Source of the DNA: Minisyncoccota bacterium
Lineage (GTDB): Bacteria; Patescibacteriota; Minisyncoccia; Minisyncoccales; RBG-13-42-11
Reading direction: 5' to 3'
NCBI GenBank assembly: GCA_016782605.1
Contig: JADHYE010000001.1
Span: forward strand, 11,128 to 75,127
Length of the DNA stretch: 64,000 nucleotides
The notes under the pieces were generated by a model, which saw only the letters and a list, made by a program, of their open reading frames with translations, was not told where the DNA came from and did no database searches. Every line of letters begins with the position of its first letter. Within the stretch, counting starts at the first letter, position 1. This document shows, piece after piece, positions 3,993-57,192 of this stretch. A program made the translations under genes and the position numbers.

Positions 3993-5021
3993 TTATTTGA
4001 AATACTTTACCTTAGCCGTATTGTGTTCGTCCAAGGTTTTGCTAAAAATAGTTTCTCCTTCCCTGGTGGAAAGATAATACCAGTAATCGCTATCTTGAAG
4101 ATAAACAGCAGCGATAATGCTTTCAAGTCCAGGATTACAAATCGGACCCAAGGGAAGCCCTTTGTATTTGTAAGTATTGTAGGGAGAATCAATTTCTGTA
4201 CCAGAAGCGATCTCTGATCTCATTTCGTCAAACGTCCAGTTTTCTTTTCCTAAGATATAAGCAATGGTGGCGCAGCTGCGCAAGGGTTCGCTATTCTCAA
4301 TCTTTCCCCAGAAAATGCCAGAAACTATTTTTTTGTCCTCCAAAGTTATTACTTCCTTCTCAAGAATACTAGCCATGGTCACTATTTCAAAAATAGTTTT
4401 GCCTTGTTTCTTAATTTCCTCTCTTAATTCAGAATTCAATTTCTTATCGAAATTAATAAGCATTTTTTCAACAACGCTTTCCATGCTTTCTTTGCTGGTT
4501 TTCTCGTAAGTATCGGGAAAAAGATATCCTTCCAGACTTAAATTCTCAGGCTTATCTCTAAGAAAAGCAAAATCAGCAGAAAAATCTTTTGAAGAAGAAC
4601 CGGTTATCGGAGAACCGACCAATCCAAAAAAATCATCAGCCCCAAATAAACCTTTGCTTTCAAAATAAGAAGCGATATCCCTTAAACTCCATCCTTCAAT
4701 AATAGTGATCTTTTCCTTTATGACATTGCCGGAAAAAAGCTTGTCAGCAATCTGAGGCATATTCATTGAAGGAGACAAAATATATTCTCCTGCTTTTAAA
4801 TAAGAAGCCATTCCCACAGTCAAAACATAAACCCGGAAAACAGGAGACCACCTTATCAATCCCTGATTTTCCAAATTCAAGCCGATGTCCCTTGAACCCT
4901 GACCCTTTTCCACGCTGAAAATAACTTCTTTTTCAGAATTCTGTTCTACGGGCAAAATAACCAGCCAGGAAGCAATCAGAACAATAATAACGACAATAAT
5001 TAAAATTAAAGATTTTTTCAC
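3993..5021 (-). CDS. mltG: endolytic murein transglycosylase, YceG/MltG family
   Basis: N-terminal TM helix followed by a YceG-like domain. The ORF-track start (5033, TTG) lies inside repeat A1. GTG at 5021-5019 gives MKKSLILII.... Confidence 0.8.
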   Translation of the reverse strand: MKKSLILIIVVIIVLIASWLVILPVEQNSEKEVIFSVEKGQGSRDIGLNLENQGLIRWSPVFRVYVLTVGMASYLKAGEYILSPSMNMPQIADKLFSGNVIKEKITIIEGWSLRDIASYFESKGLFGADDFFGLVGSPITGSSSKDFSADFAFLRDKPENLSLEGYLFPDTYEKTSKESMESVVEKMLINFDKKLNSELREEIKKQGKTIFEIVTMASILEKEVITLEDKKIVSGIFWGKIENSEPLRSCATIAYILGKENWTFDEMRSEIASGTEIDSPYNTYKYKGLPLGPICNPGLESIIAAVYLQDSDYWYYLSTREGETIFSKTLDEHNTAKVKYFK

Positions 5022-5152
5022 CCCGTATATCAACCTCCAAGCATTTTCAATGCGAAAATATCCTGAAGGCTGTCTTTATTTAATAATATATTCAACATAA
5101 TAACTTTGTTTGAGATTTTAATACGAAGTATTCTGGAAGTTGTATTACGGGG
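5021..5152 (-). mobile_element. family A hairpin (MITE-like) element, copy A1
   Basis: 132 bp. Arms are ccccgtatatcaacctccaag / ctggaagttgtattacgggg. Flanking direct repeat ttca at 5017-5020 and 5153-5156 (TGAA in gene sense). Lies between the pcm stop and the mltG start. Confidence 0.7.
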
Positions 5153-5153
5153 T

Positions 5154-5789
5154 TCATTTTTTCAATAAAGGAACGAAAATAAACCCTGGATGTTCTTTTT
5201 CTTCAAAATCAGTTTCGTTCTTTTTAATTAAAAGCCAGATTGAAGAATCAACCGGAGCAACAATCCTGCCTCCGATTTTCAGCTGCTTTTTCCAAGAATC
5301 GGGAATATTAACAGCACTAGCAGATGCTAAAATCTTGTCAAACCCTTCGACAAACTCAGGGTGAGAGGAGATATTGGGATAACCGTTGTTTCCGTCAAGA
5401 CAGAAAAACTGAACAATCCCCTTTTTAACGAAATTATATTTTGAAACGTTTTTCTCGCCAAAGTCCTTCAATTCCTGGATTATATCAAGGGAAATAACCT
5501 TTCCTTTTTTACCGACAATTTCAGCTAACAAAGCGCTGGTCCAGCCAGAGCCTGAACCAACATCCAAAACCTTATCCCCTTCATGCAAATCCAGCAATTC
5601 CATCATAAAAGCAACAACCAAAGGCTGAGAAATGGTCTGGCCGAATCCTATAGGCAAAGCCTCGTTGATCTCTGCTAAATTCTTTGAGTCTTCCGGCAAA
5701 AAATCGCTTCTCTTTATTTTTTTAAAAGCTTCTATCACTTTCGGCGTTTTCAGCCAGTTATCTTTAATTAGCTCTTCAATAAGCGGCAT
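5154..5789 (-). CDS. pcm: protein-L-isoaspartate O-methyltransferase
   Basis: 211 aa with a SAM-binding motif (VLDVGSGSGW) and a GQTISQP motif typical of Pcm. Confidence 0.85.
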   Translation of the reverse strand: MPLIEELIKDNWLKTPKVIEAFKKIKRSDFLPEDSKNLAEINEALPIGFGQTISQPLVVAFMMELLDLHEGDKVLDVGSGSGWTSALLAEIVGKKGKVISLDIIQELKDFGEKNVSKYNFVKKGIVQFFCLDGNNGYPNISSHPEFVEGFDKILASASAVNIPDSWKKQLKIGGRIVAPVDSSIWLLIKKNETDFEEKEHPGFIFVPLLKK

Positions 5790-5790
5790 A

Positions 5791-5860
5791 CTAGGTAGTA
5801 GAAATTCGACAAATTTATTTTTCTTTGCTGCCAGGCAGCAGTCGAATTTTCACTACCTGG
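5791..5860 (-). mobile_element. family B hairpin (MITE-like) element, copy B1
   Basis: 70 bp. Arms are ctaggtagtagaaattcgac / gtcgaattttcactacctgg. Flanked by cata at 5787-5790 and 5861-5864 (TATG in gene sense). 5789-5787 is the pcm ATG. Confidence 0.7.
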
Positions 5861-6312
5861 CATAGTTTTTGTGGTAAACTCATTTTATCAATAAATAGTA
5901 TTCCGTCCAAGTGGTCAATCTCGTGCTGGAAAACCCTGGCTGACAATCCATCAACTTTCATTTTGATTTTTTCCCCCTGCAGATTAAGAAACTCCAGTTC
6001 CACTTCCTTAGCTCTTTTAATCTTTAAAAACAAACCAGGAAAACTCAAGCATCCCTCTTCCATGACTTCTGTCTTTCTGCTTTTCCGCACGATCTTTGGA
6101 TTTATGAAAACTTGCGACTTTCCTTCAAAAAAAGCAGCGATTATGCTTTTTGATTCGCCGATCTGAGAAGCAGCCAATCCAATGCCGTCTTTTTCCATCA
6201 TTATCTTTTTCATTTCTTCGGCCAATATCTTCACCTCCTCGGTTATCTCCTTGATCGCAGAAGATTTCTTTCTCAGTATTGGATTTGGATATTCTAATAT
6301 TTGCTTACTCAT
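5815..6312 (-). CDS. def: peptide deformylase
   Basis: EGCLSFPG and QHEIDHLDG metal-site motifs. The last ~15 codons (CQVVKIRLLPGSKEK*) and the stop codon are encoded by element B1. Confidence 0.9.
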   Translation of the reverse strand: MSKQILEYPNPILRKKSSAIKEITEEVKILAEEMKKIMMEKDGIGLAASQIGESKSIIAAFFEGKSQVFINPKIVRKSRKTEVMEEGCLSFPGLFLKIKRAKEVELEFLNLQGEKIKMKVDGLSARVFQHEIDHLDGILFIDKMSLPQKLCQVVKIRLLPGSKEK

Positions 6313-7534
6313 GTCTTCTTAATGCATCAACTGGTTTTAATTTAGCAGCTGTCCTGGCCGGCAGAACTCCGGAAACGCAACCGATAATAAAAGAAAAAAC
6401 CAAGCCGAAAACAACCAAACCGAGGTTTACCGAAGCAGTAAAATAGAAAACAGGATGCACCTGTCCATAGAATTCAATACCTTTGGCCAGTAAGGAACCG
6501 AGCAGAGTGCCGCCTATCCCTCCAATTAAACCGACAATGCCCGCTTCAAAAAGAAATATCAAAAGGATAGCTGAGTTTTTCGCTCCAATTGCCTTCATGA
6601 TACCTATTTCTTTAGTCCTTTCTCTGACCGAAGTAAACATGCTGTTAGTAATTCCGATGCCCCCGACAATAATGGCAATGCTGGCAAAAGCAAAAATGAC
6701 CATCTGAATTATGCCCAAAATATTGCCGGCTATCGCCCCCATTTTTTCGGAAGTGATAACGGAAAAATCAGCCTCGTCGGTTCCTGACCTTCTCTTTCTT
6801 GTTTCGCTTAAGGCTTCTTCAATTTTTTGAGCCACGACATTCTCATCCACTCCGTCTTCAAGCTTAACCATGGCATAAGCAGCAGTGCCCCGCTTTTCTC
6901 CGGTAACGTCCTGGTAGACTTTCATATCCATATATACCATACTGTCGTCCTGCTTGCTGCCCAAGGAATCGAGCACTCCTGCCACCTGGAATTTTCTTCC
7001 CTTTATCGTTATTTCCGAACCGGCTTTCACTTCCTTTGAGAAAATTTCAGTGGCCACCTGGGAACCGATTAAAACTTCGTTTCCTTTGCTCGGCCACCTT
7101 CCTTCGGTCAAACTCCAGCCCTGAAAAATGCTCAAAATATCCAAACCTTCCTTCCACGGATCATAGCCGGCGATGGCTATTTGCTTTGATTCTTCCTTAA
7201 ACCTGGCAATAGCTCCGGTATAAGAAAATCCCAAAACCTTGTCTACGCCTTCTGCTTTTTTAATCGCTTCAATGTCTTCTTTCTGCAGCTTTGCGCCACC
7301 GAACATCATGGACGTAAGAAGATCTTCATCGCTGCCCGGCATAACCATAACCATTTCTCCGCCCATGGCCTGCAGCTGCTGGTTTATCGTTGATTTCAAT
7401 CCTTCTGACAGAGAAAGCAGGGAAATTATTAAAAAAACGCCAATGACAATGCCTAAAATAGTAAGAAAACTTCTCAATGACCTTGTTCTGATATTTCTGA
7501 CGGCAATATTAAAATATTCTTTTAATTCTTCCAT
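6305..7534 (-). CDS. ABC transporter permease, MacB/FtsX type
   Basis: 409 aa. N-terminal TM helix, large extracytoplasmic domain, three C-terminal TM helices. Overlaps the neighbouring ATPase gene. Confidence 0.85.
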   Translation of the reverse strand: MEELKEYFNIAVRNIRTRSLRSFLTILGIVIGVFLIISLLSLSEGLKSTINQQLQAMGGEMVMVMPGSDEDLLTSMMFGGAKLQKEDIEAIKKAEGVDKVLGFSYTGAIARFKEESKQIAIAGYDPWKEGLDILSIFQGWSLTEGRWPSKGNEVLIGSQVATEIFSKEVKAGSEITIKGRKFQVAGVLDSLGSKQDDSMVYMDMKVYQDVTGEKRGTAAYAMVKLEDGVDENVVAQKIEEALSETRKRRSGTDEADFSVITSEKMGAIAGNILGIIQMVIFAFASIAIIVGGIGITNSMFTSVRERTKEIGIMKAIGAKNSAILLIFLFEAGIVGLIGGIGGTLLGSLLAKGIEFYGQVHPVFYFTASVNLGLVVFGLVFSFIIGCVSGVLPARTAAKLKPVDALRRHE

Positions 7535-8235
7535 AAATAGTCTTTGGCAGTGGAATGGTTTTCAACTATCATGCCGTCTTCAATGTTTACTACCTGTTCG
7601 GCATAATTGGCGATCTTTGCATCATGGGTGACTACGACAACGGTCTTGCCCTCATTCTTGTGAAAATCGGTCAGCACTTCCATTATCTTTTCCCCGGTAA
7701 CAGAATCCAAATTTCCCGTCGGCTCGTCAGCGATAATCACTTCGGGATGATTGGCAAAAGCCCTGGCAATAGCCACTCTCTGGCGTTCGCCTCCGGAAAG
7801 CTCTCCTGGCCCATGGAAAATCCTATCCTCCAAATCAACGGAAACTAAAATGTCTTTTGCCCTCTTTTTTCTTTCTTCCTGGGCTATACCCTGAAAAGTC
7901 ATGGGTAGCATTACGTTTTCAATAGCTGAAAGATTAGAAAGTAAATTGAATTCCTGAAAAATAAAACCGAGTATCTTACCACGAAATTGAGCCAGTTGGC
8001 TTTCTGCCATTAAAGAAATGTCTTTGCCTTTTAAAAAAACTTTTCCCTTTGTCGGCGAATCCAAACAGCCGATAATATTTAAAAGAGTTGATTTGCCCGA
8101 GCCCGAAGACCCCATAATCGCCACAAAAGCGCCTGGAAAAATTTCCAGGCTCAATCCTCTTAAAGCGTGAACTTCTGTCTTTCCTAATTCGTAAGTTCTC
8201 CAGACATTATCCAGTTTAATAATTGGCTCTGCCAT
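7522..8235 (-). CDS. ABC transporter ATP-binding protein (MacB/LolD-like)
   Basis: Walker A GSSGSGKST, signature LSGGERQR, Walker B IIADEPTGNLD. Confidence 0.9.
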   Translation of the reverse strand: MAEPIIKLDNVWRTYELGKTEVHALRGLSLEIFPGAFVAIMGSSGSGKSTLLNIIGCLDSPTKGKVFLKGKDISLMAESQLAQFRGKILGFIFQEFNLLSNLSAIENVMLPMTFQGIAQEERKKRAKDILVSVDLEDRIFHGPGELSGGERQRVAIARAFANHPEVIIADEPTGNLDSVTGEKIMEVLTDFHKNEGKTVVVVTHDAKIANYAEQVVNIEDGMIVENHSTAKDYLWKN

Positions 8236-9776
8236 TATCTTAAAATTACTTTTTCTCCCTGCTCCAAACCAGAAACAATCTCCACCATATCATTACTACC
8301 TTTTAACCCGACTTCAATATCTTTTTCCTGAACGTTTCCGTCAACAAGAATTTCAACAAAATCTCTGGAATCCCTCGTACGGATTGCATCCTCAGGAAGA
8401 ATCAAAACATTGTCTTTTGTTTGGGCTTTAATGACAATATCAGCTGACATGCCAGACCTTATGCCTTCTGGAGTATCTTCAAATCCAATAATCGTCTCGT
8501 AATAAACCACTCCGTCAACTATTTTCTCCGCCGGGCTTATTAAAATAATCTTTCCTGTAAAAGTTTTTCCAGAAAAAGCAACCAAAGAAATATCAACAGA
8601 ATTACCGACAGCAATCTTAACCACGTCTTCTTCGTAAATATCTACTTTTATCTCGTAGGAAGCTGTTGGCAAAAGCACTATTACCGCTTCCTGTGAACCT
8701 GCTTGCGCTGACTCGCCTTCATTTTTATTTATCTCAGCAATCTTTCCTTCTACCGGACTGATAATCTTTGACTGCTCAATCTCGTTCTGATAAAGCTGCA
8801 CTTTAGTCAAAGCCTGCTTTACCTGGGTTGAATATAAATCAACGTCTACTTGTTTAGGATCGCCCGCCACCAGATCAAAATTATTCTCTGCTTCCTGGAG
8901 ACTTGCTCTCATCGTTTCAACGCCGGCTTCTGCAGAATAGATTGCCTGCTGATTGGTAATGATACTAGCTAAAGCAGTGTTAATATTTGTTTTTAAAGTA
9001 TCCAAAGAAGCTCTGTCAGCTGCTGAAACCTTGCTTTTATAAACAGGGGCTGTATCAACGACAGAACGTATTGTTTCTAGATGCAAAAATGTCTTCTCAA
9101 GATAATCTTTCATTATGGCCAAAGAAGCTTTGATATTTTCATTGGTCGGATTGGCTGCTAACGCATCTAAATTGCTTTCTGTCGCTTTTTCTACGCTTTC
9201 TATAGTATCCCTGGCTATCATTATTTTTCCGGCATCTGAATCAAAAGTACCAACATAACTGATGACAAACTGCTTCACAAAAACCAAAGCATTGTAAATG
9301 GAAGGATAAGAACTGTCCAAAACAGTCATGGCTGTCTGAAAGCTTTGCTGCAGATCATCTTGAGAGTTTTTAAAGGCAATTTGGGCGTTGTTAAGTTGTG
9401 CCTGGGAGATTTTAACTTCTTCAGTGCTAGCTCCTTCCAGCAGCTTTGTCAGATTTAACTGAGCTATCTCATAAGCAGCTCTCGCTTCCTGAAGCTGAAT
9501 ATTAATATCAGCTGTATCCAATATAGCCAATTCTTGTCCGGCCTGCACTTCATCGCCCACAGCAACATAAATCTTTTCAATTTTCCCGGTATTGCCGAAA
9601 TTAAGACTCAGCTTCTCTCCCTTTTCTACCTGTCCTGTTTCAAAAATCTCCTGACTGACGGTTCCTAAGGTTACTTCAACCAAATTAAACTCAGGCTTCT
9701 TTTCTTTCAAGAAAACCTGATAAACGAAAACTACTAGAACGATTACTGCGCCGATTATTAATATTTGTCTTTTCAT
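8235..9776 (-). CDS. HlyD/MacA-family periplasmic adaptor protein
   Basis: 513 aa. N-terminal TM helix, long coiled-coil region, C-terminal beta-barrel-like region. Forms an operon with the MacB-like pair. Confidence 0.7.
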   Translation of the reverse strand: MKRQILIIGAVIVLVVFVYQVFLKEKKPEFNLVEVTLGTVSQEIFETGQVEKGEKLSLNFGNTGKIEKIYVAVGDEVQAGQELAILDTADINIQLQEARAAYEIAQLNLTKLLEGASTEEVKISQAQLNNAQIAFKNSQDDLQQSFQTAMTVLDSSYPSIYNALVFVKQFVISYVGTFDSDAGKIMIARDTIESVEKATESNLDALAANPTNENIKASLAIMKDYLEKTFLHLETIRSVVDTAPVYKSKVSAADRASLDTLKTNINTALASIITNQQAIYSAEAGVETMRASLQEAENNFDLVAGDPKQVDVDLYSTQVKQALTKVQLYQNEIEQSKIISPVEGKIAEINKNEGESAQAGSQEAVIVLLPTASYEIKVDIYEEDVVKIAVGNSVDISLVAFSGKTFTGKIILISPAEKIVDGVVYYETIIGFEDTPEGIRSGMSADIVIKAQTKDNVLILPEDAIRTRDSRDFVEILVDGNVQEKDIEVGLKGSNDMVEIVSGLEQGEKVILR

Positions 9777-10084
9777 ATGTTTTGCTTAATTATTATTTGA
9801 TGCCAGTCCTCGTAGCAATATATTCCCTGGAACATCCAACCGACGAGAAAACCGGCAGAAAGGGTAAAAAACAAAGGCGAAAATCGATATTTCTTTCTTA
9901 AAAAAAATATAAGAAAGCACAATAAAGTCATTGAAATCAGCCAGTGATGCAAATGAATATGCCATCCCCACACATTAAAAGCCAAACTAAACAAGCCGAT
10001 ATCTCCTGTTTTTTCTCCGGCTAAAAACTTGCCAGTAAAATATCCAGCTGATGAACCTGTAAAAAATCCTAATAAAGTTCCCAT
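9773..10084 (-). CDS. small hypothetical membrane protein
   Basis: 103 aa, hydrophobic. Overlaps the adaptor gene start by 4 nt. Confidence 0.4.
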   Translation of the reverse strand: MGTLLGFFTGSSAGYFTGKFLAGEKTGDIGLFSLAFNVWGWHIHLHHWLISMTLLCFLIFFLRKKYRFSPLFFTLSAGFLVGWMFQGIYCYEDWHQIIIKQNI

Positions 10085-10091
10085 ATTTTTG

Positions 10092-10163
10092 CGGGGGCGC
10101 CAGGATTCGAACCTAGAACAGAAATTTTGGAGATTCCCATGATAGCCATTTCACCACGCCCCC
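10092..10163 (-). tRNA. trnW: tRNA-Trp (anticodon CCA)
   Basis: 72 nt, hand-folded. Acceptor GGGGGCG/CGCCCCC, anticodon loop CTCCAAA, T-loop TTCGAAT. No encoded CCA. Confidence 0.85.
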
Positions 10164-10167
10164 GTAT

Positions 10168-10500
10168 TTACATATTTCGTCTTGCGCAAAAAGCGTACTG
10201 CAAGAAATAATCATCAAGGTCTTTAAGCGAACTATTGTATTCTTTGCCACCGGTAACAGCATCGCAAAATAATTCTTTTACTCTGGCAATTTCCCTAATT
10301 CTTCCACTCAATCTTGGATCTATAAGAGTCAAATCAAACAACTCCAAAGCCCTGGCAACTGCTCCCCAAAAAGTATCTTCATCTTCCCCCTGCCATTTTC
10401 TAGCCCTGCTAACCTCACTACCGATATTAGCCATTTGCTCAATTAATGAAAGCTTGAACCATCTCCCCGATGAAAGGTCTTTGTGCAAGGTTTTTGTCAT
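10168..10500 (-). CDS. hypothetical helical protein
   Basis: 110-aa ORF. Overlaps the upstream ORF by 4 nt (ATGA-type coupling). Family not recognised with certainty. Confidence 0.4.
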   Translation of the reverse strand: MTKTLHKDLSSGRWFKLSLIEQMANIGSEVSRARKWQGEDEDTFWGAVARALELFDLTLIDPRLSGRIREIARVKELFCDAVTGGKEYNSSLKDLDDYFLQYAFCARRNM

Positions 10501-10847: not shown

Positions 10848-10942
10848 ATTGCTTATTTGCTTGCCGAGCTGCAGCAAGATAGAAGAAGAGATTTATCTCT
10901 TCGCTTCTTTGTGAAAACTAACTAAAAAGCACTTATATGAAT

Positions 10943-11287: not shown

Positions 11288-11380
11288 ATGTTTAAAAATT
11301 AATTATTTATTCCTTTTTCAATTCTACCAAAAAACCGCCCAAAACAATAGACGGAATAGCTACATCTCCATTGTTCGATT

Positions 11381-13348: not shown

Positions 13349-13480
13349 CCCTGTATATCAACATCCAGGCATTTTCAATGCGAAAACACCCTGAAGATTG
13401 TCTTTATTTAATAATATATTTAACATAATAACTTTGTTTGAGATTTTAATACGAAGTATTCTGGATGTTGTATTACGGGG
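13349..13480 (-). mobile_element. family A element, copy A2
   Basis: 132 bp, flanked by cata at 13345-13348 and 13481-13484. 13347-13345 is the trmD ATG. Confidence 0.7.
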
Positions 13481-14447: not shown

Positions 14448-15137
14448 TTACCAATGTTTGACTGCTAAAGCGTTTTTCGCTGCCTCAACTTCTGCTTCTT
14501 GTTTTGAAGATCCTTTGCCTTCGGCCACTAAATCCTTATCAAGGAAAACGCCGATAACGAAATTCTTTGCGTGATCCGGCCCGTGTTCTTTCAAAACTTT
14601 ATAGGTCGGAGTAATGCCCACTCTTTCTTGGGCTGCTTCCTGGAAAGTGGATTTAGCATCCCTGAAAAGACCTTTCTCAATGATTTCCGGCAATTTAACG
14701 ATTAAATTCTTTTTAATGAATTTTTCGCATGCTTTATAGCCTGAATCAAGGTAAGCTGAACCGATAAACGCTTCAAAAGTGTTGGCCAGGATATAATCCC
14801 TTGATTTGCCTGTTTCTTTCATTTCTCCTTTTGAAAGAAGCAAAAAATCATTAAAGCCCAATTCCTTAGCAACCTCAGCAAGCATTTTAGCATTAACCAG
14901 AGAAGCGCGCCAGTTGGTCAATTCGCCTTCCGGCTTTTTGGGATATTTGACAAAAAGGTGTTCGGTAATAATAAGTTCCAAAACCGCATCTCCCAAAAAT
15001 TCCAGTCTTTCATTGTTATCCAGATTGGCTTTCGGATTCTCGTTCAGATAGGAGCGATGGCAAAAAGCCTGAATCAATAAATCCTTGTTTTTGAATTTAA
15101 AATTTAATTGCTTTTCCAATATTGAAAAATCATTCAT
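14448..15137 (-). CDS. rnc: ribonuclease III
   Basis: Signature NERLEFLGDAVLE and a C-terminal dsRBD (..GSSKQEAEVEAAKNAL). Confidence 0.9.
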   Translation of the reverse strand: MNDFSILEKQLNFKFKNKDLLIQAFCHRSYLNENPKANLDNNERLEFLGDAVLELIITEHLFVKYPKKPEGELTNWRASLVNAKMLAEVAKELGFNDFLLLSKGEMKETGKSRDYILANTFEAFIGSAYLDSGYKACEKFIKKNLIVKLPEIIEKGLFRDAKSTFQEAAQERVGITPTYKVLKEHGPDHAKNFVIGVFLDKDLVAEGKGSSKQEAEVEAAKNALAVKHW

Positions 15138-15267
15138 ATACCGAGTCCGCCCAAGGCGGGCGAAGGTGAAGAAGAGGTTTACCTCTTCGACTTACTTTTC
15201 TAATACCGAGTCCGCCCAAGGCGGGCGAAGGTGAAGAAGAGGTTTACCTCTTCGACTTACTTTTCTA
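15138..15267 (-). repeat. perfect 65-bp tandem duplication (2 units) of a two-hairpin intergenic module that includes the nusB stop codon
   Basis: 15138-15202 and 15203-15267 are identical by eye. Each unit contains GTCCGCC-caa-GGCGGGC and GAAGAGG-ttta-CCTCTTC hairpins plus ..cttacttttcta (the last nusB codons). Confidence 0.8.
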
Positions 15268-33152: not shown

Positions 33153-33575
33153 TCACTCAATGGTAATGCCCATGTTCTTAGCCGTACCCTCAATTATTTT
33201 CATTGCCTGTTCGATGTCATCTGCGTTCAAATCAGGCATCTTTTTCAAAGCTATTTCTTTCAATTGTGCCCTTGAAATCTTGGCCACTTTAGTTTTATTG
33301 GGAGTGCCAGAGCCCTTTTCAATGCCAGCTGCTTTTTTCAATAATTCGGAAGCTGGCGGCTGCTTCAAGATAAAAGTATAGGTTCTGTCCTCAAAAACCG
33401 TGATTTCAACCGGAATAACGAAACCCTGGTTGTTTTTGGTCGCATCGTTGAACCTCTGGCAGAACTCGGATATGTTCACTCCGTATTGAGCCAAAACAGG
33501 ACCGACCGGAGGAGCCGGAGTCGCCAGAGCTGCTTTAATTTGAAGTTTTACGATTGCTTTTACTTTTTTTGCCAT
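33153..33575 (-). CDS. rplK: 50S ribosomal protein L11
   Basis: 140 aa. [26 protein letters not shown].. is canonical L11. Confidence 0.95.
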
Positions 33576-33870
33576 AGTGGTAATACCTAATTAAGTCGCG
33601 GCTCGCGCATATTATATATTAATATATTGCCTTCGGCGAATGTGCTACTGCCGCTCTTTAGAAGACGAACGCAGTGAGGCGGGAAAAAAGATTTATCTCT
33701 TTGACCACTCTCGGTGCTCAATGAAGCTAAAGCTTCATTTCGGTCTGCGCTTCCGTGAACGGAAGCTTGCCTTCTAACGTTTTCCACCTCATCGGCGGAA
33801 ATCCTGTTTTCCTATACGGAAGAACCTGATGGTTCTTCCGACCCATCTCCGATATGGGATACTATTACGT
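33576..33870 (-). repeat. composite structured leader repeat F2, directly upstream of the rplK ATG
   Basis: Shares the start-proximal block with F1 and F3, block 33651-33739 with F1, and block 33807-33868 with F3 (57726-57787). Confidence 0.6.
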
Positions 33871-47113: not shown

Positions 47114-47245
47114 CCCTGTATATCAACATCCAGGCATTTTCAATGCGAAAACACCCTGAAGATTGTCTTTATTTAATAATATATTTAACATAATAACTTT
47201 GTTTGAGATTTTAATACGAAGTATTCTGGATGTTGTATCACGGGG
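47114..47245 (-). mobile_element. family A element, copy A5
   Basis: 132 bp, flanked by cata at 47110-47113 and 47246-47249. 47112-47110 is the rseP ATG. Confidence 0.7.
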
Positions 47246-47811: not shown

Positions 47812-47943
47812 CCCTGTGTATCAACATCCAGGCATTTTCAATGCGAAAACATCCTGAAGATTGTTTTTATTTAATAATATATTTAACATAATAACTTTGT
47901 TTGAGATTTTAATACGAAGTATTCTGGATGTTGTATTACGGGG
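47812..47943 (-). mobile_element. family A element, copy A6
   Basis: 132 bp, flanked by cata at 47808-47811 and 47944-47947. 47810-47808 is the frr ATG. Confidence 0.7.
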
Positions 47944-51074: not shown

Positions 51075-51090
51075 ATTCAGTTATTCTAGC

Positions 51091-51129
51091 AAAAAAAATA
51101 GCGGGTAGCCATTACAATTGACTACCCGC
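51091..51129 (-). terminator. strong intrinsic terminator after the 51135-51893 gene
   Basis: Minus strand reads GCGGGTAG-tcaattgtaatgg-CTACCCGC followed by TATTTTTTTT. Confidence 0.8.
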
Positions 51130-51134
51130 ACTGC

Positions 51135-51893
51135 TCACAGAGCAGATAACTTCTCCTCAACTCCACTGATGTGGAATTTAGCACTCAGCCCAGTCTCCTT
51201 CTGAGACCTCTCATATAACTTTATGGCCGTTCTGTACTCCGTCTTTGCTCTTCGTGTCTCTCCGATTTCCCTAAGGGCATCGGCCTTGTTCTGTTTGGCA
51301 TGCCCCGCTGTTCGGAGATCTCCCTTTGCCAAAGCAGTCTTATGCACCTTTTCGCACACTTGAACACTCTCAGCGAACCTTCCCTCACGACGAAGGGTAA
51401 TGGCCTTGGTATTCCAAACCGATGGCTCTTCGGAGAATGATGCAACAGCCTTATTGATAACTGACCAAGTCTCTGGCTTTTTATCTAAAAGCCAAAGTGC
51501 CAAGGGCAGCCCATTCAAACAGGAAATTTTCCTGCTTTTGTTTCTGGTATTAAGAGCTTCCCGAAACGAAAGCTCTGCTAGTTTAAGGTTGCCCTTCCTG
51601 GTTGCGACCGGGCCTTTGATTGAGATATAATAGTAATCCCATCCCAATATCCGGTTAGCCTCGGCAATCTCTTCTTTGCCGGTTAAACTTACTTTGTTCT
51701 TCTTGATCAAGGCAACTGACTCATCATATTTACCATCTGCATACAATTTCTTAGCCAGTTTCAAGATCTTTTGGGCCGGCATCGCTTTGGCAATTTCCTG
51801 CTCTTTTTTAAAGAACAGATAAACCATTGCATTGCAACCGGTAACAAAGCCCAATAGCAAGATAAATCCTGCTGAAAGAAAAAACTCTGCCAT
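51135..51893 (-). CDS. membrane-anchored TPR-like repeat protein, GC-richer than its surroundings
   Basis: 252 aa with an N-terminal TM helix and helical repeats. Preceded by AAAGGAGGTG (51908-51899), 5 nt before the ATG. Confidence 0.45.
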   Translation of the reverse strand: MAEFFLSAGFILLLGFVTGCNAMVYLFFKKEQEIAKAMPAQKILKLAKKLYADGKYDESVALIKKNKVSLTGKEEIAEANRILGWDYYYISIKGPVATRKGNLKLAELSFREALNTRNKSRKISCLNGLPLALWLLDKKPETWSVINKAVASFSEEPSVWNTKAITLRREGRFAESVQVCEKVHKTALAKGDLRTAGHAKQNKADALREIGETRRAKTEYRTAIKLYERSQKETGLSAKFHISGVEEKLSAL

Positions 51894-52066
51894 CTCGGCA
51901 CCTCCTTTCTTTATTTCTTATCTTTCGTTAATATATTAATCAAATCCTTACCTTGCAGGATATAATATGAATTCAACCTCCATCTCTCTTCTCTGCTCCT
52001 CACCATATATATCAACCCATATTGGACATAAAATGAACCACCGCTCCCCTCCTTCTACAATCACAT

Positions 52067-52095
52067 ATATTACCACGCTCTTTCCAAAATGTCAA
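52067..52095 (-). promoter_or_regulatory. consensus sigma70 promoter TTGACA-N17-TAATAT
   Basis: -35 at 52095-52090 and -10 at 52072-52067 on the minus strand. Would give a leader of about 170 nt to the 51893 ATG. TTGA of the -35 is also the flanking repeat of element C2. Confidence 0.6.
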
Positions 52096-52165
52096 CCCCA
52101 TTAGAAGTCCGCCTTGCCGGAGGCATGGCGACAGCCACCAAGGGGGCAGCTTACTTCTAACGGAG
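52096..52165. mobile_element. family C hairpin element, copy C2
   Basis: 70 bp. Arms are ccccattagaagt / acttctaacggag with a GC-rich interior. Flanked by tcaa at 52092-52095 and 52166-52169. Confidence 0.6.
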
Positions 52166-52177
52166 TCAAGATTGAGG

Positions 52178-52183
52178 TATAAT
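52178..52183 (+). promoter_or_regulatory. -10 hexamer TATAAT placing a predicted TSS on the A of the upstream duplicated ATG (52190)
   Basis: TATAAT-AATCAT-ATG. The -35 is weak. Confidence 0.35.
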
Positions 52184-52192
52184 AATCATATG

Positions 52193-52264
52193 CCAGGTAG
52201 TGAAAATTCAACCACTGCCGCGGCAGTGAAAAAAATAATAATTTGTCGAATTTCTACTACCTAG
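52193..52264 (+). mobile_element. family B element, copy B3 (inverted relative to B1 and B2, matching its plus-strand gene)
   Basis: 72 bp, flanked by tatg at 52189-52192 and 52265-52268. 52266-52268 is the ATG of the 52266-53570 gene. Confidence 0.7.
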
Positions 52265-52265
52265 T

Positions 52266-53570
52266 ATGACCAAAAAGACAAAAACAATACTGTTTTTAGC
52301 CTGCTTACTTGCATTCATCCTGTTAGCTCCCTCAATAGTCCTGTACTCCCAAGGATACAGAATTGATTTTAATCCTCCAGAAGGCGGAAAAATGATTACC
52401 CAAACCGGAGGCCTTTTTTTGAAAGTCACGCCCAAACAAACAGATATTTATATTGACGGCAAACCTAAAAAAAGAACTGATTTTCTATTCGGTTCTGTTT
52501 TAATTGAAAACCTCATTCCTGGAAAGTACAAAGTAGAAATCAAAAAATTAACCAGCCAGGAAGAATACTATCCCTGGGAGAAAAACCTGGAAATACGGGA
52601 AAAACAGGTAACTGAAGCCAAGAACGTTGTCCTTTTCCCGAAAAACGTTAATTTCAACGTCTTATCAACCAACGTAGAACAGCTTTGGCTTTCTCTGGAC
52701 CAAAAGAAACTAATCTTAAAGGAAAATGAAAAAGCCAGCTGGTCCTTAAAGCTTTACGACCCGGAAAAGAATATAAAAAGCTATTTAATAAGCGACGAGG
52801 ATTTCTTCACGAAAGAACCCCAATTAATCAATCTGAAATTCTCGGGAGACTCAAGAAGTATTAATCTGGAAGTCAGCATAAAAGAAGCAATACAATCTTT
52901 TTCTCTGCAACTTGACCAAGCAAAACCAACTTTAAATAAAAAAACAGCAGCCACAACGACAACTGGAAACGCTGCTATCTCGCAACAAGCAGGCAATGAT
53001 ATATATTATCTGGACAGTTTCGGCTATCTTTTCAGGAATAAAGAAAAGCTGGCAGAAACTCCCTTTCAAACAAAACAAGAAACAGAATATGCTTTAGATA
53101 TTTTCAACGGCAACATATTCTTAAAAGAAAACGACAAACTGTACAAATTCAATTACAATCTGAAAACATTTGAACATTTCTTTGACGGAATCAATATCTT
53201 AAAGCTTTCTCCGGACAATAAAAAACTGCTTTACGCTTCAAACAATGAAATGTGGATTCTTTTCCTGGAAGACAAAATCGACCAGCCGCAGAAAAAATCA
53301 GGAGAGAAAATCTTTTTAATCCGCTTATCAGACCAAATCACAAGCATCTCCTGGATAAACGACAATTACCTGGCTTTTCTTGCCGGCAATACCGTTAAAA
53401 TCATTGAAATAGACGACAGGGACAGAATAAACGTTATAGACATCTTTGAAACAAAAAACCTCCCTCAAGAAGGAAGCATTAATGAAATGTCCTGGAACAG
53501 GTTTGACAATAAAATCTATCTCTTGGACGAAAACGGCTATTTATATAGCTCTAACGTCCTGCTCCCGTAA
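52266..53570 (+). CDS. hypothetical membrane-anchored protein with a PEGA-like domain and a C-terminal propeller-like region
   Basis: 434 aa. N-terminal TM helix, and TDIYIDGKPKKRT...PGKYKVEIKK resembling PEGA. Confidence 0.5.
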   Translation: MTKKTKTILFLACLLAFILLAPSIVLYSQGYRIDFNPPEGGKMITQTGGLFLKVTPKQTDIYIDGKPKKRTDFLFGSVLIENLIPGKYKVEIKKLTSQEEYYPWEKNLEIREKQVTEAKNVVLFPKNVNFNVLSTNVEQLWLSLDQKKLILKENEKASWSLKLYDPEKNIKSYLISDEDFFTKEPQLINLKFSGDSRSINLEVSIKEAIQSFSLQLDQAKPTLNKKTAATTTTGNAAISQQAGNDIYYLDSFGYLFRNKEKLAETPFQTKQETEYALDIFNGNIFLKENDKLYKFNYNLKTFEHFFDGINILKLSPDNKKLLYASNNEMWILFLEDKIDQPQKKSGEKIFLIRLSDQITSISWINDNYLAFLAGNTVKIIEIDDRDRINVIDIFETKNLPQEGSINEMSWNRFDNKIYLLDENGYLYSSNVLLP

Positions 53571-54269
53571 TTTGATTTTCTTTTTAAAAGCTTCCCAGCC
53601 CATTTCTCCGGTATTGGCTATAACGCAAACTTCCTTGAACTGGCAATAACGACACTGCCAATTATCGGGGTAATCCGATAATCTGTCGGGAATAACGTTC
53701 TTATCAATCTTCTTTCTAATACCAGCCAAAAAGTCCAAAAGAGAAAGGGCGCATTTTTTATCGTATTTTACGACAAAATCCTTCAGCTGCTGGTTATCTT
53801 TATTAACGTAAAGCAGTATTCCTTTAGGAATCTTAAAATAATGGAGATAAAGCTGAAGCTGAGCAATATTTTCCTCCTTTGGCTCAGTTAACTTACCAAA
53901 AATCATGCTGTTCATACTTTTAATATCCAAAACATATAGTTCCTTGCCATCGCTGATTATGGCATCAGCCCTGCCTGAAATCAGTTCCTGAGGAGGAATA
54001 TTAACTTCGGCAGCCACCACATGGATTTCCCTGGTGCTCAAAAGCGGCTTCATAATAAGCTGATGGATGTGGTCGCCATGGTCAAACAGCCTTAGAATAT
54101 TGGCCTCCATCTCCTTTCTGGGAACATTCTTGAACTTAAAAAACAAAGCTCTGCCGCATTTGCCTGCGTCAGTAATATAAAAGTGATGCTGCTCTTTATC
54201 TCTTTGCCTGTCCAAATAGAATTTATCGATTATATCTTTAAGAAACATAGAGTTTATCTCTTCTGCCAC
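53541..54269 (-). CDS. PD-(D/E)XK nuclease with a Cas4-like 4-Cys arrangement
   Basis: One N-terminal Cys (DAGKCGRA), a D..DIK catalytic-type motif, QLQLY, and C-terminal CRYCQFKEVC (Cx2Cx5C). Confidence 0.6.
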   Translation of the reverse strand: MAEEINSMFLKDIIDKFYLDRQRDKEQHHFYITDAGKCGRALFFKFKNVPRKEMEANILRLFDHGDHIHQLIMKPLLSTREIHVVAAEVNIPPQELISGRADAIISDGKELYVLDIKSMNSMIFGKLTEPKEENIAQLQLYLHYFKIPKGILLYVNKDNQQLKDFVVKYDKKCALSLLDFLAGIRKKIDKNVIPDRLSDYPDNWQCRYCQFKEVCVIANTGEMGWEAFKKKIKLREQDVRAI

Positions 54270-54739
54270 TGAGGAGCACGACGAGCGCGCTTCAATCCGA
54301 ACTTCTTTCTTTCCCTCATCCTCGGGTCTCTTTTCAAAAAACCAGCTTTTTTCAACTGTTTCCTCAATTCTGGATCGAATAAAACTAAAGCGCGAGTTAA
54401 ACCGTGCCTGACAGCTTCAGCCTGGGAAGTCGTCCCTCCCCCTTTAACTTTTACTGAAACCTGAAATTTGTCAGAATAATCAGTCAAAATCAAAGGAGAA
54501 AAAATAATACGCTGAAGGTATTTTGTCGGAAAATAATTTTCAAAAGTCCTTGTATTTATTAAAAAGGTCTTTTCTTTTTGAACAGAAATTCTCACCCTGG
54601 CTACAGCTGTCTTTCTCCTGCCTATGCCCTCAAAATACCTGGCTACTTTAGGTTTAACTGTTACTTTGGCAGTTTTTTTAGCTGGAGCTTTTTTGACTTT
54701 CTTTACTGTTTCTTTTTTTGTTTTTTTAGCCTTTGGCAT
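54254..54739 (-). CDS. rpsI: 30S ribosomal protein S9 with a Lys-rich N-terminal extension
   Basis: C-terminus ..RERKKFGLKRARRAPQWQKR is canonical S9. The ORF-track start (54760) runs into repeat A7. ATG at 54739 gives MPKAKKTKK... Confidence 0.9.
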   Translation of the reverse strand: MPKAKKTKKETVKKVKKAPAKKTAKVTVKPKVARYFEGIGRRKTAVARVRISVQKEKTFLINTRTFENYFPTKYLQRIIFSPLILTDYSDKFQVSVKVKGGGTTSQAEAVRHGLTRALVLFDPELRKQLKKAGFLKRDPRMRERKKFGLKRARRAPQWQKR

Positions 54740-54740
54740 A

Positions 54741-54872
54741 CCCCGTATATCAACATCCAAGCATTTTCAATGCGAAAACACTCTGAAGGCTGTTTTTATT
54801 TAATAATATATTCAACATAATAACTTTGTTTGATATTTTAATACGAAGTATTCTGGATGTTGTATTACAGGG
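54741..54872 (-). mobile_element. family A element, copy A7
   Basis: 132 bp, flanked by cata at 54737-54740 and 54873-54876. The rplM stop codon (54867-54865) lies inside the element. Confidence 0.7.
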
Positions 54873-55215
54873 CATATTTTAATCTTTTAATCATTTTTGC
54901 TCTTAATTTATTCTTGGGCAGCATGCCAAAAACCGCTTTCCTCAAAACTTCTTCCGGATTCTTCTCAAATAACTTCTCCAAAGTTATCTCCTTCAAGCTT
55001 CCCAGATATCCAGAATGACGGTAGTATTTCTTCTGTTTGGCTTTTTTGCCGGTGAATTTCAACTTATCAACGTTTTGGACAATAACAACATCGCCGATAT
55101 CTTTGTACGGCGCAAAGTCTGCTTTCTGTTTCCCCCTCAAAAGCAAAGCTATTTCAACAGCCAGTCTGCCTAAAACCTTATCAGTAGCGTCTATTTTGTG
55201 GGTTTTGCGTTCCAT
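54865..55215 (-). CDS. rplM: 50S ribosomal protein L13
   Basis: 116 aa, L13-like (..VLGRLAVEIALLLRGK..). The last residues (..YAL*) are encoded by TATG plus element A7. Confidence 0.9.
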   Translation of the reverse strand: MERKTHKIDATDKVLGRLAVEIALLLRGKQKADFAPYKDIGDVVIVQNVDKLKFTGKKAKQKKYYRHSGYLGSLKEITLEKLFEKNPEEVLRKAVFGMLPKNKLRAKMIKRLKYAL

Positions 55216-55217
55216 AG

Positions 55218-55568
55218 TTATTTAACCAATTCTATTATGGCTATTTTGGCAGCATCTACTTTTCTTTGGCCAAGCTTAATAATCCTGGTATATCCTCCTT
55301 TTCTTTCTTTGAATCTCGGGGCGATCTCATCAACCAATTTCTTAACCACTTTTCCAGTAAAAAACTTTGCCAATAATCTGCGCGAAGCCAAAGTGCCGAC
55401 TTTCGCTTTGGTAATCTTTTTTTCAACGAAAGAGGAAACCTCTTTTGCCTTAGCTTCTGTTGTTTTAACTTTTTCTTTCAATATCAAAGCAGCAGCTAAA
55501 GATCTTAAAAGAGCGTTTCTTTGGTCTTTTTCCCTATTTAGTTTTTTCCCTTTTTTTCTTTTTCTCAT
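55218..55568 (-). CDS. rplQ: 50S ribosomal protein L17
   Basis: 116 aa with ..GYTRIIKLG.R..D.A..A.IEL typical of L17. Confidence 0.9.
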   Translation of the reverse strand: MRKRKKGKKLNREKDQRNALLRSLAAALILKEKVKTTEAKAKEVSSFVEKKITKAKVGTLASRRLLAKFFTGKVVKKLVDEIAPRFKERKGGYTRIIKLGQRKVDAAKIAIIELVK

Positions 55569-56364
55569 TTTTTACTTTTTTGCTTACTGCTTTCTTTTCT
55601 TTTTTCGGCTTCTTGGCCGCTTTTTTCTTTTCTTTGTCTTCCGGTTCTACAGATGCAGCTTTCGGCTGGAAAGCTGTAGCCAGCAACGAAAAGTGGCTAA
55701 TCAAAATTTCCGAAGCCTGATAAAATGCCTGTTCCGGATCGATAATGCCGTCTGTTTCAATTTCCAGAAACAATCTGTCAAAGTCAGTTCTTTCTCCGAC
55801 ACGCATATTCTCAACCCTGGAACTTACCCTTTTTACAGGAGTAAAGCTGGCATCCAGCAGAATAGCTCCTATCTCTAATTTTTCAGGCATGGAGCCTGCT
55901 GTTTTTTTCCTTGTTTCGCGGCTGGAATAGCCAATTCCCTTTTCAATCTGGATTTCCATTTCCAGTTCAGCGGATTTTGAATTCAAAGTGGCAATATGGC
56001 AGTTTTTATTTACCAATTCCACTTGGCTGGGCAGCTTGAAATCAAAGCCCTTCACTGCTTTTTCTCCCTTAACTTTCAGGGTCGCTTTCTGTGGCTCGTC
56101 GCTAAAAAGCTTAAATCTCAATTGCTTCAAATTAAGCATTATAGTGATAACGTCTTCTAAAACTCCTGAAATCGTTGAGAACTCATGGGAAACTCCCTTG
56201 ATTTTGACTTGGGTAATAGCAGCTCCTTCAAGCGAAGAAAGCAAAACCCTTCTCAAAGAATTGCCGACGGTTACTCCGTAGCCAGGACGCAAAGCTTCTA
56301 TTTCAAAAACAGCTTTGTTCCCTTCTTTTTTAACTATTTTGGGAGCGTGAGGTAAATTAATCAT
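55534..56364 (-). CDS. rpoA: DNA-directed RNA polymerase alpha subunit, N-terminal domain only, plus a Lys-rich tail
   Basis: About 235-aa alpha-NTD (..GNSLRRVLLSSL..) followed by a ~40-aa KKEK-rich tail. No alpha-CTD-like sequence. Confidence 0.9.
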   Translation of the reverse strand: MINLPHAPKIVKKEGNKAVFEIEALRPGYGVTVGNSLRRVLLSSLEGAAITQVKIKGVSHEFSTISGVLEDVITIMLNLKQLRFKLFSDEPQKATLKVKGEKAVKGFDFKLPSQVELVNKNCHIATLNSKSAELEMEIQIEKGIGYSSRETRKKTAGSMPEKLEIGAILLDASFTPVKRVSSRVENMRVGERTDFDRLFLEIETDGIIDPEQAFYQASEILISHFSLLATAFQPKAASVEPEDKEKKKAAKKPKKEKKAVSKKVKNEKKKKREKTK

Positions 56365-56422
56365 ATAGCGAGTCCCGCAACAACGGGACGAAGGTTAAGA
56401 AGAGGATGAATTCCTCTTCGAT
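56365..56422 (-). repeat. two-hairpin intergenic module related to the nusB-rnc unit
   Basis: atagcgaGTCCCGcaacaaCGGGACgaaggttaaGAAGAGGatgaattCCTCTTCgattta fills the whole rpsD-rpoA spacer. Same architecture as 15138-15202 with different stem sequences. Confidence 0.6.
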
Positions 56423-57052
56423 TTATTTTGAGTAAAACTCGAAAATTGCGGAGAGTTCTGCCGGTGGGACAGCCTCTTCTAAATTTGGTGAATCGATGAC
56501 CTTTGCCTCCAGCTTCTCAGCGTCTAATTTGAGCCAAGACGGAGGATTATATTTTTTTAAAGTAGATGATAATTTCTGGAAAATTGTTTTTTTTAAAGAA
56601 TTGGGGTTAACGCTTATTTTGTCCCCTTTCTTAACCAGATAGCTGGAAATATTAATCGGCCTGTCGTTAACCATAAGATGGCTGTGGGAAACCATTTGTC
56701 TGGCAGCAAATTTGGAAGGAGCGAAACCTAATCTGAAAACTACATTGTCCAAGCGGCTCTCCAAAGTTTTAATTAAAGCAGCGCCGGCATCCGTCACCTT
56801 TCCCCTGGCCTTTAAAATATCTTTGACGTAGTTCCTGAATTGCTTCTCTTCCAAATTATACCAGTTCTTTAATTTTTGTTTTTCCCTTAATTCTTTACCG
56901 TATTCAGAAAGCGATTTCACTCTTTTTTTAGCTTTTGGCCCTGGCGGATAAGGTTTTTTGATCATTGGGCATTTCTGCGATGAGCACCTTTCGCCTCTCA
57001 AAAAAAGCTTAATTCCTGCACGACGGCAAATTTTGCATTTAGAAACATTCAT
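56423..57052 (-). CDS. rpsD: 30S ribosomal protein S4
   Basis: 209 aa with an N-terminal zinc-ribbon-like CKICRR..C segment and an S4 domain. Confidence 0.95.
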   Translation of the reverse strand: MNVSKCKICRRAGIKLFLRGERCSSQKCPMIKKPYPPGPKAKKRVKSLSEYGKELREKQKLKNWYNLEEKQFRNYVKDILKARGKVTDAGAALIKTLESRLDNVVFRLGFAPSKFAARQMVSHSHLMVNDRPINISSYLVKKGDKISVNPNSLKKTIFQKLSSTLKKYNPPSWLKLDAEKLEAKVIDSPNLEEAVPPAELSAIFEFYSK

Positions 57053-57053
57053 A

Positions 57054-57185
57054 CCCTGTATATCAACATCCAGGCATTTTCAATGCGAAAATATCCTGAA
57101 GGCTGTCTTTATTTAATAATATATTTAACATAATAACTTTGTTTGATATTTTAATACGAAGTATTCTGGATGTTGTATTACAAGG
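57054..57185 (-). mobile_element. family A element, copy A8
   Basis: 132 bp, flanked by cata at 57050-57053 and 57186-57189. 57052-57050 is the rpsD ATG. Confidence 0.7.
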
Positions 57186-57192
57186 CATAAGT

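Follow-up and report, generated by a model that had tools for sequence, protein, structure and literature searches.

Hairpin elements at gene starts in the window

The window analysed here is a 64-kb stretch of contig JADHYE010000001.1, from an organism that carries the NCBI label 'Candidatus Pacebacteria bacterium' and whose nearest relatives are labelled Nealsonbacteria or Parcubacteria. It contains eight copies, A1 to A8, of a small hairpin element, each lying directly against the start of a gene (Table 1). An earlier sequence-only reading had listed eight copies in one orientation relative to the genes that they abut; a repeat search and a terminus search recovered exactly these eight at the same coordinates, all on the minus strand, with no chance matches to the terminus expected in the window. 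The evidence set out below leads us to propose, with a probability of about 80%, that the eight copies are non-autonomous members, resembling miniature inverted-repeat transposable elements (MITEs), of a family of very small GIY-YIG nuclease elements that insert at start codons and are widespread in Patescibacteria.

NCBIfam models identified seven of the downstream genes as mltG, trmD, gyrB, rseP, frr, rpsI and rpsD. The profile matches for mltG, trmD, gyrB and rpsD begin at residues 2-6 of the protein, and the start codons are thus truly located at the element boundary. Seven copies are 132 bp long and nearly alike, as had been judged by eye, with pairwise identities of 92-99% and 16 variable positions. 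A3 is 147 bp in length, and has only the termini and about 11 subterminal nt in common with the other copies. In gene sense, the termini of the window copies read 5'-CCCCGTAATACAAC[A/T]TCCAG ... CTGGA[A/T]GTTGATATACGGGG-3', and the flanking tetranucleotides are TATG/TATG in six copies, AATG/TATG in A3 and TGAA/TGAA in A1.

In both the RNA and the DNA fold predicted for the element, a 3x3 ATA/ATA internal loop interrupts the terminal stem and two mini-hairpins of 5 bp are present, all of which had been described from the sequence. The predicted stem reaches into the flanking TATG, placing the downstream AUG in paired sequence at the foot of the stem, also as previously proposed. Within the element, outward-facing promoter-like sites were no more frequent than in shuffled sequence. 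Searches against Rfam 15 returned only tRNAs at the gathering score in the window, and no match at E <=1 across A5 and A6. A 679-bp contig of the same strain from a short-read assembly (L121, ERZ24794672) breaks inside A5 and A6, the two copies that flank frr, indicating that repeats of this kind fragment assemblies of the Candidate Phyla Radiation (CPR).

Empty sites in related genomes

The orthologous junctions were inspected in syntenic stretches from relatives of the source organism (L132 and L155, which belong to one genome, L133, L153 and L154), whose identity to the window is 95% and 89% for frr and 82-90% for pcm. At all eight junctions, the flanks seen in the window are joined in the relatives by one uninterrupted tetranucleotide, a single TATG for A2-A8 and AAAAAATGAAAAAATC (TGAA) for A1. 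No element was found within 20 kb in the syntenic stretches of L132, L133, L153, L154 and L155. All eight window copies are insertions with a 4-bp target duplication, and they were inserted recently. The proposal of a MITE-like insertion that duplicates 4 bp and adopts a single orientation is upheld by these empty sites, together with the co-varying flanks described below.

The empty site of A1 was predicted from the window alone and was afterwards confirmed in the relatives. The original mltG ATG overlapped the pcm stop codon (ATGA), and insertion duplicated TGAA, keeping the pcm stop upstream of the element, where the TGA (5156-5154) still overlaps the old mltG ATG (5157-5155). The mltG start is now a GTG (5021-5019), composed of the last G of the element and the TG of the duplication. 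The sequence-only reading had the downstream repeat supplying the start codon of the next gene: this is correct for the NATG-flanked copies, but at A1 the repeat provides only two of the three nucleotides. An independent element elsewhere (L078), with the duplication TGGA, shows the same rebuilding of a GTG-type start.

The empty sites also bear on whether the repeated sequence might be a conserved ancestral leader or regulatory RNA rather than an insertion. A stem at the AUG could serve as a translational operator. However, empty junctions at 8/8 sites in close relatives refute this explanation, near-identical copies precede functionally unrelated genes, and there is no Rfam match; we assign it a probability close to nil.

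A more distant relative, L152 (S4 76% identical), carries a 147-bp element (632-778) that is 85% identical over 75 nt to the 132-bp type of the window. It is located at the orthologous rpsK-rpsD junction, the site of A8, whereas the closer relatives (89%) are empty there. This distribution reflects either recurrent insertion at one site or precise loss by excision.

Table 1. Window elements with their flanks and empty sites, and the reading frames opened by the upstream copy of the start codon (uORF, upstream open reading frame)
Feature	Position	Strand	Details
A1, 132-bp element, probably non-autonomous	5021..5152	-	5' terminus 5133-5152, 3' terminus 5021-5040
A1 duplication TGAA	5153-5156 and 5017-5020		host gene mltG
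A1 empty site AAAAAATGAAAAAATC			in L153, L154 and L155
A1 frame of 21 codons, opened by the old mltG ATG	5092..5157	-	stops inside the element
A2, 132-bp element	13349..13480	-	duplication TATG; trmD ATG 13347-13345; empty site (single TATG) in L155
A2 uORF, 41 codons	13358..13483	-	from the upstream duplicate ATG to the TGA of the 3' terminus, 10 nt before the host ATG
A3, 147-bp element, second subfamily	36873..37019	-	flanks AATG/TATG; gyrB ATG 36871-36869; empty site in L132 and L133
A3 uORF, 46 codons	36882..37022	-	ends in AFGSGS and the stop, like the nuclease C-terminus
A4, 132-bp element	41791..41922	-	duplication TATG; ATG of an open reading frame (176 amino acids) 41789-41787; empty site in L132 and L133
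A4 uORF, 41 codons	41800..41925	-	
A5, 132-bp element	47114..47245	-	duplication TATG; rseP ATG 47112-47110; empty site in L132
A5 uORF, 41 codons	47123..47248	-	
A6, 132-bp element	47812..47943	-	duplication TATG; frr ATG 47810-47808; empty site in L132 and L133
A6 uORF, 41 codons	47821..47946	-	
A7, 132-bp element	54741..54872	-	duplication TATG; rpsI ATG 54739-54737; empty site in L132 and L133
A7 uORF, 41 codons	54750..54875	-	
A8, 132-bp element	57054..57185	-	duplication TATG; rpsD ATG 57052-57050; empty site in L132
A8 uORF, 41 codons	57063..57188	-	

Distribution of the family in Patescibacteria

Scans of a genome collection and of metagenomes yielded 60 complete elements with the same 20-nt ends. 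These derive from metagenome-assembled genomes (MAGs) labelled Saccharibacteria, Portnoybacteria, Yanofskybacteria, Parcubacteria and other Patescibacteria, and from JGI metagenomes; in Kerfeldbacteria- and Doudnabacteria-labelled MAGs only copies cut off at a contig end were seen. It should be noted that the 18-mer pattern used for the genome collection was too short, and about half of its 120 loci are chance matches; it recovered about 45 true elements. The metagenome scan for the ACATCC terminus variant of the window gave 17 hits, made up of 14 further short elements and 3 unrelated sequences.

Element lengths range from 63 to 351 bp and cluster at 63-69, 120-153, 220-229, 306-315 and 351 bp, with differing interiors. 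A 4-bp flanking repeat is present in 40 of 46 elements (TATG 31, ATGA 3, and one each of CATG, AATG, TGAA, TGGA and CTTG). As the repeat varies, with both flanks changing together, it represents a genuine duplication of the target, outside the element itself. The A3 subfamily has relatives, 88% identical, in L074 and L102, and its termini are identical to those of the full-length elements described in the next section, with 31 nt of the 3' end in common.

The longer element with the same arms for which the sequence-only reading had suggested a search does exist in other CPR genomes, but encodes a GIY-YIG nuclease of about 100 amino acids and no classical transposase. In one Portnoybacteria MAG, alignment showed that four elements of 120-127 bp correspond to the 315-bp copy of that genome with part of its interior deleted. 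One MAG carries two full copies, 97.7% identical, at different genes and with different duplications. A look-up (P0115) for a full-length copy occupying several loci found one locus seen in many samples rather than many loci. The short elements in the Portnoybacteria MAG derive from a nuclease element and the window copies lack the nuclease, which suggests that the latter are MITE-like passengers; a 306-315-bp nuclease copy matching them would have CCCCGTAATACAACATCCAG termini.

The shortest members, of 68-69 bp, are found in L013 (reverse-strand 7336-7403) and L055 (reverse-strand 2536-2604), and have the 3' end CTGGAAGATGATAT.... A different multi-copy repeat was observed at contig ends in Micrarchaeota MAGs (L007, L025, L050, L064, L073, L082, L091, L043, L049 and L092). 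The inner-box 18-mer GTAATACAACTTCCAGTA occurs in this repeat at 17 nt from the repeat's own end (TATAGCAATCCCATAAA...), and the repeat may represent either a chance resemblance or a distant archaeal relative.

The GIY-YIG nuclease of the long members

Elements of 306-351 bp contain one open reading frame (ORF), which runs from the upstream duplicate of the host ATG through both termini. The 5' terminus encodes MP[SR]NTTS[SR], followed by a domain of ~100 amino acids and the ending FG[ST]GS, and the frame closes at a TGA within the 3' terminus, which leaves 9 nt to the element end and 10 nt to the host ATG. The frame is open from host ATG to terminal TGA in 13 of the 16 ATG-flanked long copies, with a shuffle probability of <=0.002 for each. 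No element longer than 351 bp with these ends occurs among the 60, indicating that the nuclease is the only protein encoded by the family.

Pfam PF01541 (GIY-YIG) matches residues 10-80 of the 101-amino-acid protein with E values of 2e-16 to 2.5e-18. Among proteins of solved structure, those nearest in sequence are BH0048 and EF2693, both of the UPF0213 type, followed by SLX1. For the AlphaFold model (pLDDT, its predicted confidence score, 81), BH0048 ranks first and Slx1 second, with UvrC and I-TevI behind them; the best matches in the PDB are 1zg2, then Slx1. The first seven residues, which the terminus encodes, are disordered in the model. Little or no variation was seen among 120 homologues at the GIY, YIG, Arg, His and Glu positions (Y12, Y14, Y25, G27, R35, H39 and E59). 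On the basis of motifs, Pfam and PDB matches, the protein belongs to the Slx1/UPF0213 branch of the GIY-YIG superfamily; it amounts to the catalytic domain alone, of the structure-specific Slx1 type, and its C-terminal helix is basic. Stand-alone Slx1-like GIY-YIG nucleases were described in a 2006 survey as minimal, non-mobile proteins of housekeeping or unknown function (PMC1564403).

At least 794 protein clusters have the terminus-encoded N-terminus MP[SR]NTTS; most of these proteins are 101 amino acids long and bear the name 'excinuclease ABC subunit C' or else 'GIY-YIG nuclease family protein', from Patescibacteria or Nealsonbacteria. Existing gene calls already reflect the geometry of the element, with the host gene called 10 nt past the nuclease stop and the upstream gene ending in the 5' terminus.

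Structure of the termini

The inverted repeat is exactly 20 nt in length; positions 1-7 and 11-20 pair (17/20 in every copy), and positions 8-10 are A.A, T.T and A.A in all 37 distinct end pairs. Positions 4 (A-T, C-G, G-C, T-A) and 15 (T-A, A-T) change on both sides together, giving a covariation score of 0.155 (0.068 in shuffles), a value that 0/500 shuffles reached and that lay beyond all slid controls. A conserved internal loop within a covarying stem suggests that the ends are recognized in a folded state, single-stranded or extruded.

The mismatch also has a coding consequence. It is the ATA/ATA mismatch that creates the TGA, as a fully complementary 3' end would read GTTGTATTAC, without a stop. 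At the other end, GTAATAC gives a TAA in another frame, which closes gatA upstream of A4 (41917-41915) and rplM upstream of A7 (54867-54865), and likewise the upstream genes at seven further loci.

A separate observation concerns the outer stem of A2 and A4-A8, where the differences between copies at terminus positions 3-4 and their partners are mostly C-to-T or G-to-A transitions, giving T.G or C.A pairs on one or other strand.

Placement at start codons

TATG is the prevailing context of start codons in this lineage: it forms 46 of the 67 called starts in the window (69%), 17/23 in L132 and 15/25 in L133. The window has 44 further TATG sites that are non-coding and are not starts, and none holds a copy, in agreement with the earlier observation that no copy sits at a non-start TATG. 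All seven TATG-flanked copies lie at starts, which has a probability of about 0.009 when compared with non-disruptive sites and of about 7e-7 when compared with all 348 TATG sites. In other genomes, 43 of 46 elements are directly followed by an ORF that has its start in the duplication and either spans >=60 codons or continues past the contig end, and the orientation of the element relative to this ORF is invariant; copies in other genomes thus keep the placement and orientation first noticed in the window. Taken together, the figures from the window and from elsewhere make the start-codon rule firm. An extended target motif was not detected beyond NATG, where only general A/T richness was seen, and the genome shows no avoidance of TATG (363 observed, 406 expected).

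The rule could arise by selection and not by targeting, if insertion took place at all kinds of TATG or AT-rich sites and, in gene-dense genomes, the sole survivors were copies that rebuild a start codon. Such a process would fit the 89% coding density of the window, where start codons make up half of the harmless TATG sites, the variable register of the duplication against the ATG (NATG, ATGA, TGNN), and the two short elements that lie on stop codons. The 44 empty non-coding sites, the 43/46 elements at starts across genomes and the invariant orientation speak against it. Moreover, non-coding copies need no start codon in order to persist and gain nothing from one, yet they obey the rule with fixed orientation, which argues that targeting is mechanistic. 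Selection is nevertheless a live rival to mechanistic target choice, although on balance we regard it as unlikely.

Translation through the element

The sequence-only reading did not remark that translation from the upstream duplicate ATG would lead into the element. An upstream open reading frame (uORF) that is open to the terminal TGA is present in all seven window copies with NATG flanks (six with TATG, and A3; Table 1). The frame at A1 differs because its duplication is offset by 2 nt. The window uORFs have no family match and no similarity to GIY-YIG proteins. Among 26 independent short families, the uORF is open to the terminal TGA in eight, against about 1.2 expected.

Most genes in the window had been described as devoid of Shine-Dalgarno sequences, and the count agrees: a GGAG, GAGG or AGGA core lies upstream of only 5/63 window genes, the random rate. 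In such a genome, the host gene is most likely translated by termination-reinitiation. The stem of about 20 bp in the RNA would bury both AUGs, while the upstream AUG would keep its native initiation context, either an A/U-rich leader or coupling to the preceding gene. A ribosome initiating there would unwind the 5' arm, read the uORF, terminate at the TGA 10 nt before the host AUG, and reinitiate.

A model for mobility

We propose that the full-length form of 306-351 bp amounts to one gene, whose 20-nt inverted termini both enclose the ORF and form part of it. Integration would produce a 4-bp duplication centred on the host start codon, usually TATG, in fixed orientation. The upstream copy of the start codon would open the element frame, be it the nuclease or a uORF of 41-46 codons, and this frame would end at a TGA that exists only through the invariant ATA/ATA mismatch of the 3' terminus. 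The downstream copy would restore the host start 10 nt past the TGA, and upstream genes that overlapped the old start would be closed by the TAA of the 5' terminus. A copy that encodes the nuclease, located at another place in the genome, would mobilize the window copies in trans.

The mode of movement is the weakest part of the model. The nuclease is a candidate for the mobilizing enzyme because it is the only gene of the element. It might make 4-nt staggered cuts just outside both ends and at the target, after which host ligase would join the non-palindromic 4-nt overhangs. Cut-and-paste through such overhangs would explain both the duplication and why the orientation is fixed, would hand TATG on from donor to target, and might permit precise excision. 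Resolution of a cruciform in the manner of a Holliday junction was considered and rejected, as it would give hairpin-capped breaks and not excision.

Several observations weigh against the model. No nuclease copy was found in the 64-kb window by tblastn, the 132-bp type has nothing in common with nuclease copies beyond the 20-nt termini, and no full-length copy with the ACATCC terminus variant was present among the 17 metagenome hits. GIY-YIG enzymes are hydrolytic nucleases, none of which is, to our knowledge, a transposase, and the nuclease element encodes no joining activity. Within the window alone, the preference for starts over harmless TATG sites is modest (P about 0.009), and the L013 and L055 elements, with the duplication TAAA, occupy the stop codon that ends a long ORF upstream. 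In 16 of 18 copies the nuclease ORF has ATG or GTG as its ninth codon, so that the element may have a start codon of its own, and the claim that it lacks one is not secure. Finally, the uORF is broken or short in 18 of the 26 short families, and A1 has no read-through frame; reinitiation is thus not obligatory, and an open frame is favoured but not required.

The copies could instead be ordinary MITEs moved by a classical transposase, for example of the DDE type, encoded elsewhere, with the GIY-YIG ORF as a passenger or as a gene that had gained the ends. Such a transposase would suit the combination of a 4-bp target duplication and 20-bp inverted ends, a hallmark of DDE transposition, the lack of a nuclease copy in the window, and the absence of GIY-YIG proteins from the known transposases. 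However, none of the 60 elements with these ends exceeds 351 bp, the nuclease ORF spans both termini, which supply its stop and its first 7 codons, a nuclease copy has given rise to short elements in the same genome by internal deletion, and strict orientation at a non-palindromic 4-bp target would be unusual for a symmetric DDE transpososome. We therefore consider a DDE transposase distinctly unlikely.

Homing is a further alternative, in which the nuclease would cut empty alleles and the element would spread by repair from the occupied allele, as do the free-standing GIY-YIG endonuclease genes of phage T4. The GIY-YIG domain weakly matches the group I intron endonuclease family, and the tightly coupled intergenic placement resembles that of the T4 seg and mob genes. 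Against this, the copies lie at many unrelated genes, share no flanks and have true 4-bp duplications, the protein of 101 amino acids has no separate DNA-binding domain beyond residues 10-80 covered by Pfam, and its fold is closest to Slx1/UPF0213 and not to I-TevI. Homing is accordingly very improbable.

We know of no recognized insertion-sequence family that uses an enzyme of the GIY-YIG type. The start-codon elements may constitute a new class of prokaryotic transposable element, with an Slx1-like GIY-YIG nuclease of ~100 amino acids as the only gene, start-codon targeting, and a length of ~310 bp that would make them the smallest known autonomous mobile elements; we put the chances of this at roughly even. 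The family is apparently undescribed: searches of the accessible literature, in which subscription journals were not covered, turned up no GIY-YIG gene bounded by inverted repeats and no start-codon-specific insertion.

Should the nuclease prove to be the mobilizing enzyme, it would represent a new enzymatic class for prokaryotic transposons and a new lower size limit for an autonomous element. In some of the most compact bacterial genomes, a selfish element would have settled where a 4-bp duplication regenerates what insertion destroys, borrowing the start of its host. Hundreds of small CPR genes called 'excinuclease ABC subunit C' or 'GIY-YIG nuclease' are probably such elements, and gene callers extend or mis-start the genes that flank them. 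The elements also offer natural experiments on Shine-Dalgarno-free initiation and on termination-reinitiation in uncultivated bacteria, and a nuclease of only 100 amino acids with specificity for a given hairpin or start context might find use as a tool.

Comparison with known systems

Like MITEs, the window copies have inverted termini and a target duplication with empty sites, and are small and multi-copy without an enzyme. A coding partner is present in the same genome in the Portnoybacteria MAG (the 315-bp copy and its four derivatives), and there is none in the 64-kb window. The sequence-only reading had drawn a comparison with the Correia elements of Neisseria, and the generic part of this resemblance stands: both are short (about 130 bp), multi-copy and non-coding, have long hairpin termini and a short duplication, lie beside genes in transcribed regions and derive from a longer coding element. 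Correia elements duplicate TA and have 26-bp termini. The window elements differ in that their duplication of 4 bp, mostly TATG, holds the start codon, with position and orientation fixed, and in that the coding partner of ~310 bp has only a GIY-YIG nuclease and is not an insertion sequence with a DDE transposase. The termini, CCCCGTAATACAAC..., are unrelated to those of Correia elements, and identity with this family was rejected.

IS200/IS605 palindromic elements and REP/RAYT systems make no target duplication, and have separate subterminal hairpins and a fixed left-flank tetranucleotide. Both were rejected, as the flanks of the start-codon elements change together (TATG, ATGA, TGAA, TGGA, CATG), the ends pair with each other, and the enzyme is of the GIY-YIG and not the HUH type.

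With the seg genes of phage T4 and I-TevI, the long elements have in common a selfish GIY-YIG gene that is inserted between genes of the host and relies on host signals for its expression. They differ in having a nuclease of Slx1/UPF0213-like fold without NUMOD or other DNA-binding modules, and in their inverted termini, duplications, deletion derivatives and many non-homologous sites. A homing endonuclease of the I-TevI type was rejected on the grounds that the domain occupies residues 10-80 of 101, the TIGR01453 score is 26 bits against a cut-off of 56, and the sites are many. UPF0213 proteins (YhbQ, BH0048, COG2827) are similar as minimal GIY-YIG domains of about 100 amino acids, BH0048 being the best PDB match by sequence and fold, whereas the element gene lies between conserved inverted termini, which encode the residues at either end of the protein, and shows mobile behaviour.

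The palindromic elements of Rickettsia (RPEs) are likewise small palindromic repeats of reduced genomes whose survival is tied to the translation of host genes. RPEs insert in frame inside coding sequence and join the protein, with no known encoded enzyme, whereas the start-codon elements precede the coding sequence, carry a stop and restore the start. Integron attC sites are comparable in their two paired boxes with an unpaired spacer, variable-length centre and a single-stranded hairpin as the likely recognized form. The start-codon elements, in contrast, are located upstream of housekeeping genes, with a target duplication and without an integrase or cassette array. Their termini (ATACAAC / GTTGATA) do not fit the attC consensus (RYYYAAC / GTTRRRY) and their neighbours are ribosomal and other core genes; an assignment to attC was rejected.

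Other repeats in the window

A second, unrelated repeat family is present on the minus strand at 3576-3727, 33564-33868 and 57631-57787. It consists of a conserved leader ending ...GCCGCGACTTAATTAGGTATTACCACTATGG that runs into the start codons of rplJ, rplK and rpsK; across 96 nt, the leaders of rplJ and rplK have an identity of 96%. This family could be another start-codon-associated element or a shared regulatory leader. Short hairpin repeats, GAAGAGATTTATCTCTTC, occur at 364-409, 10883-10928 and 15133-15262, the last of which is a 65-nt tandem duplication.

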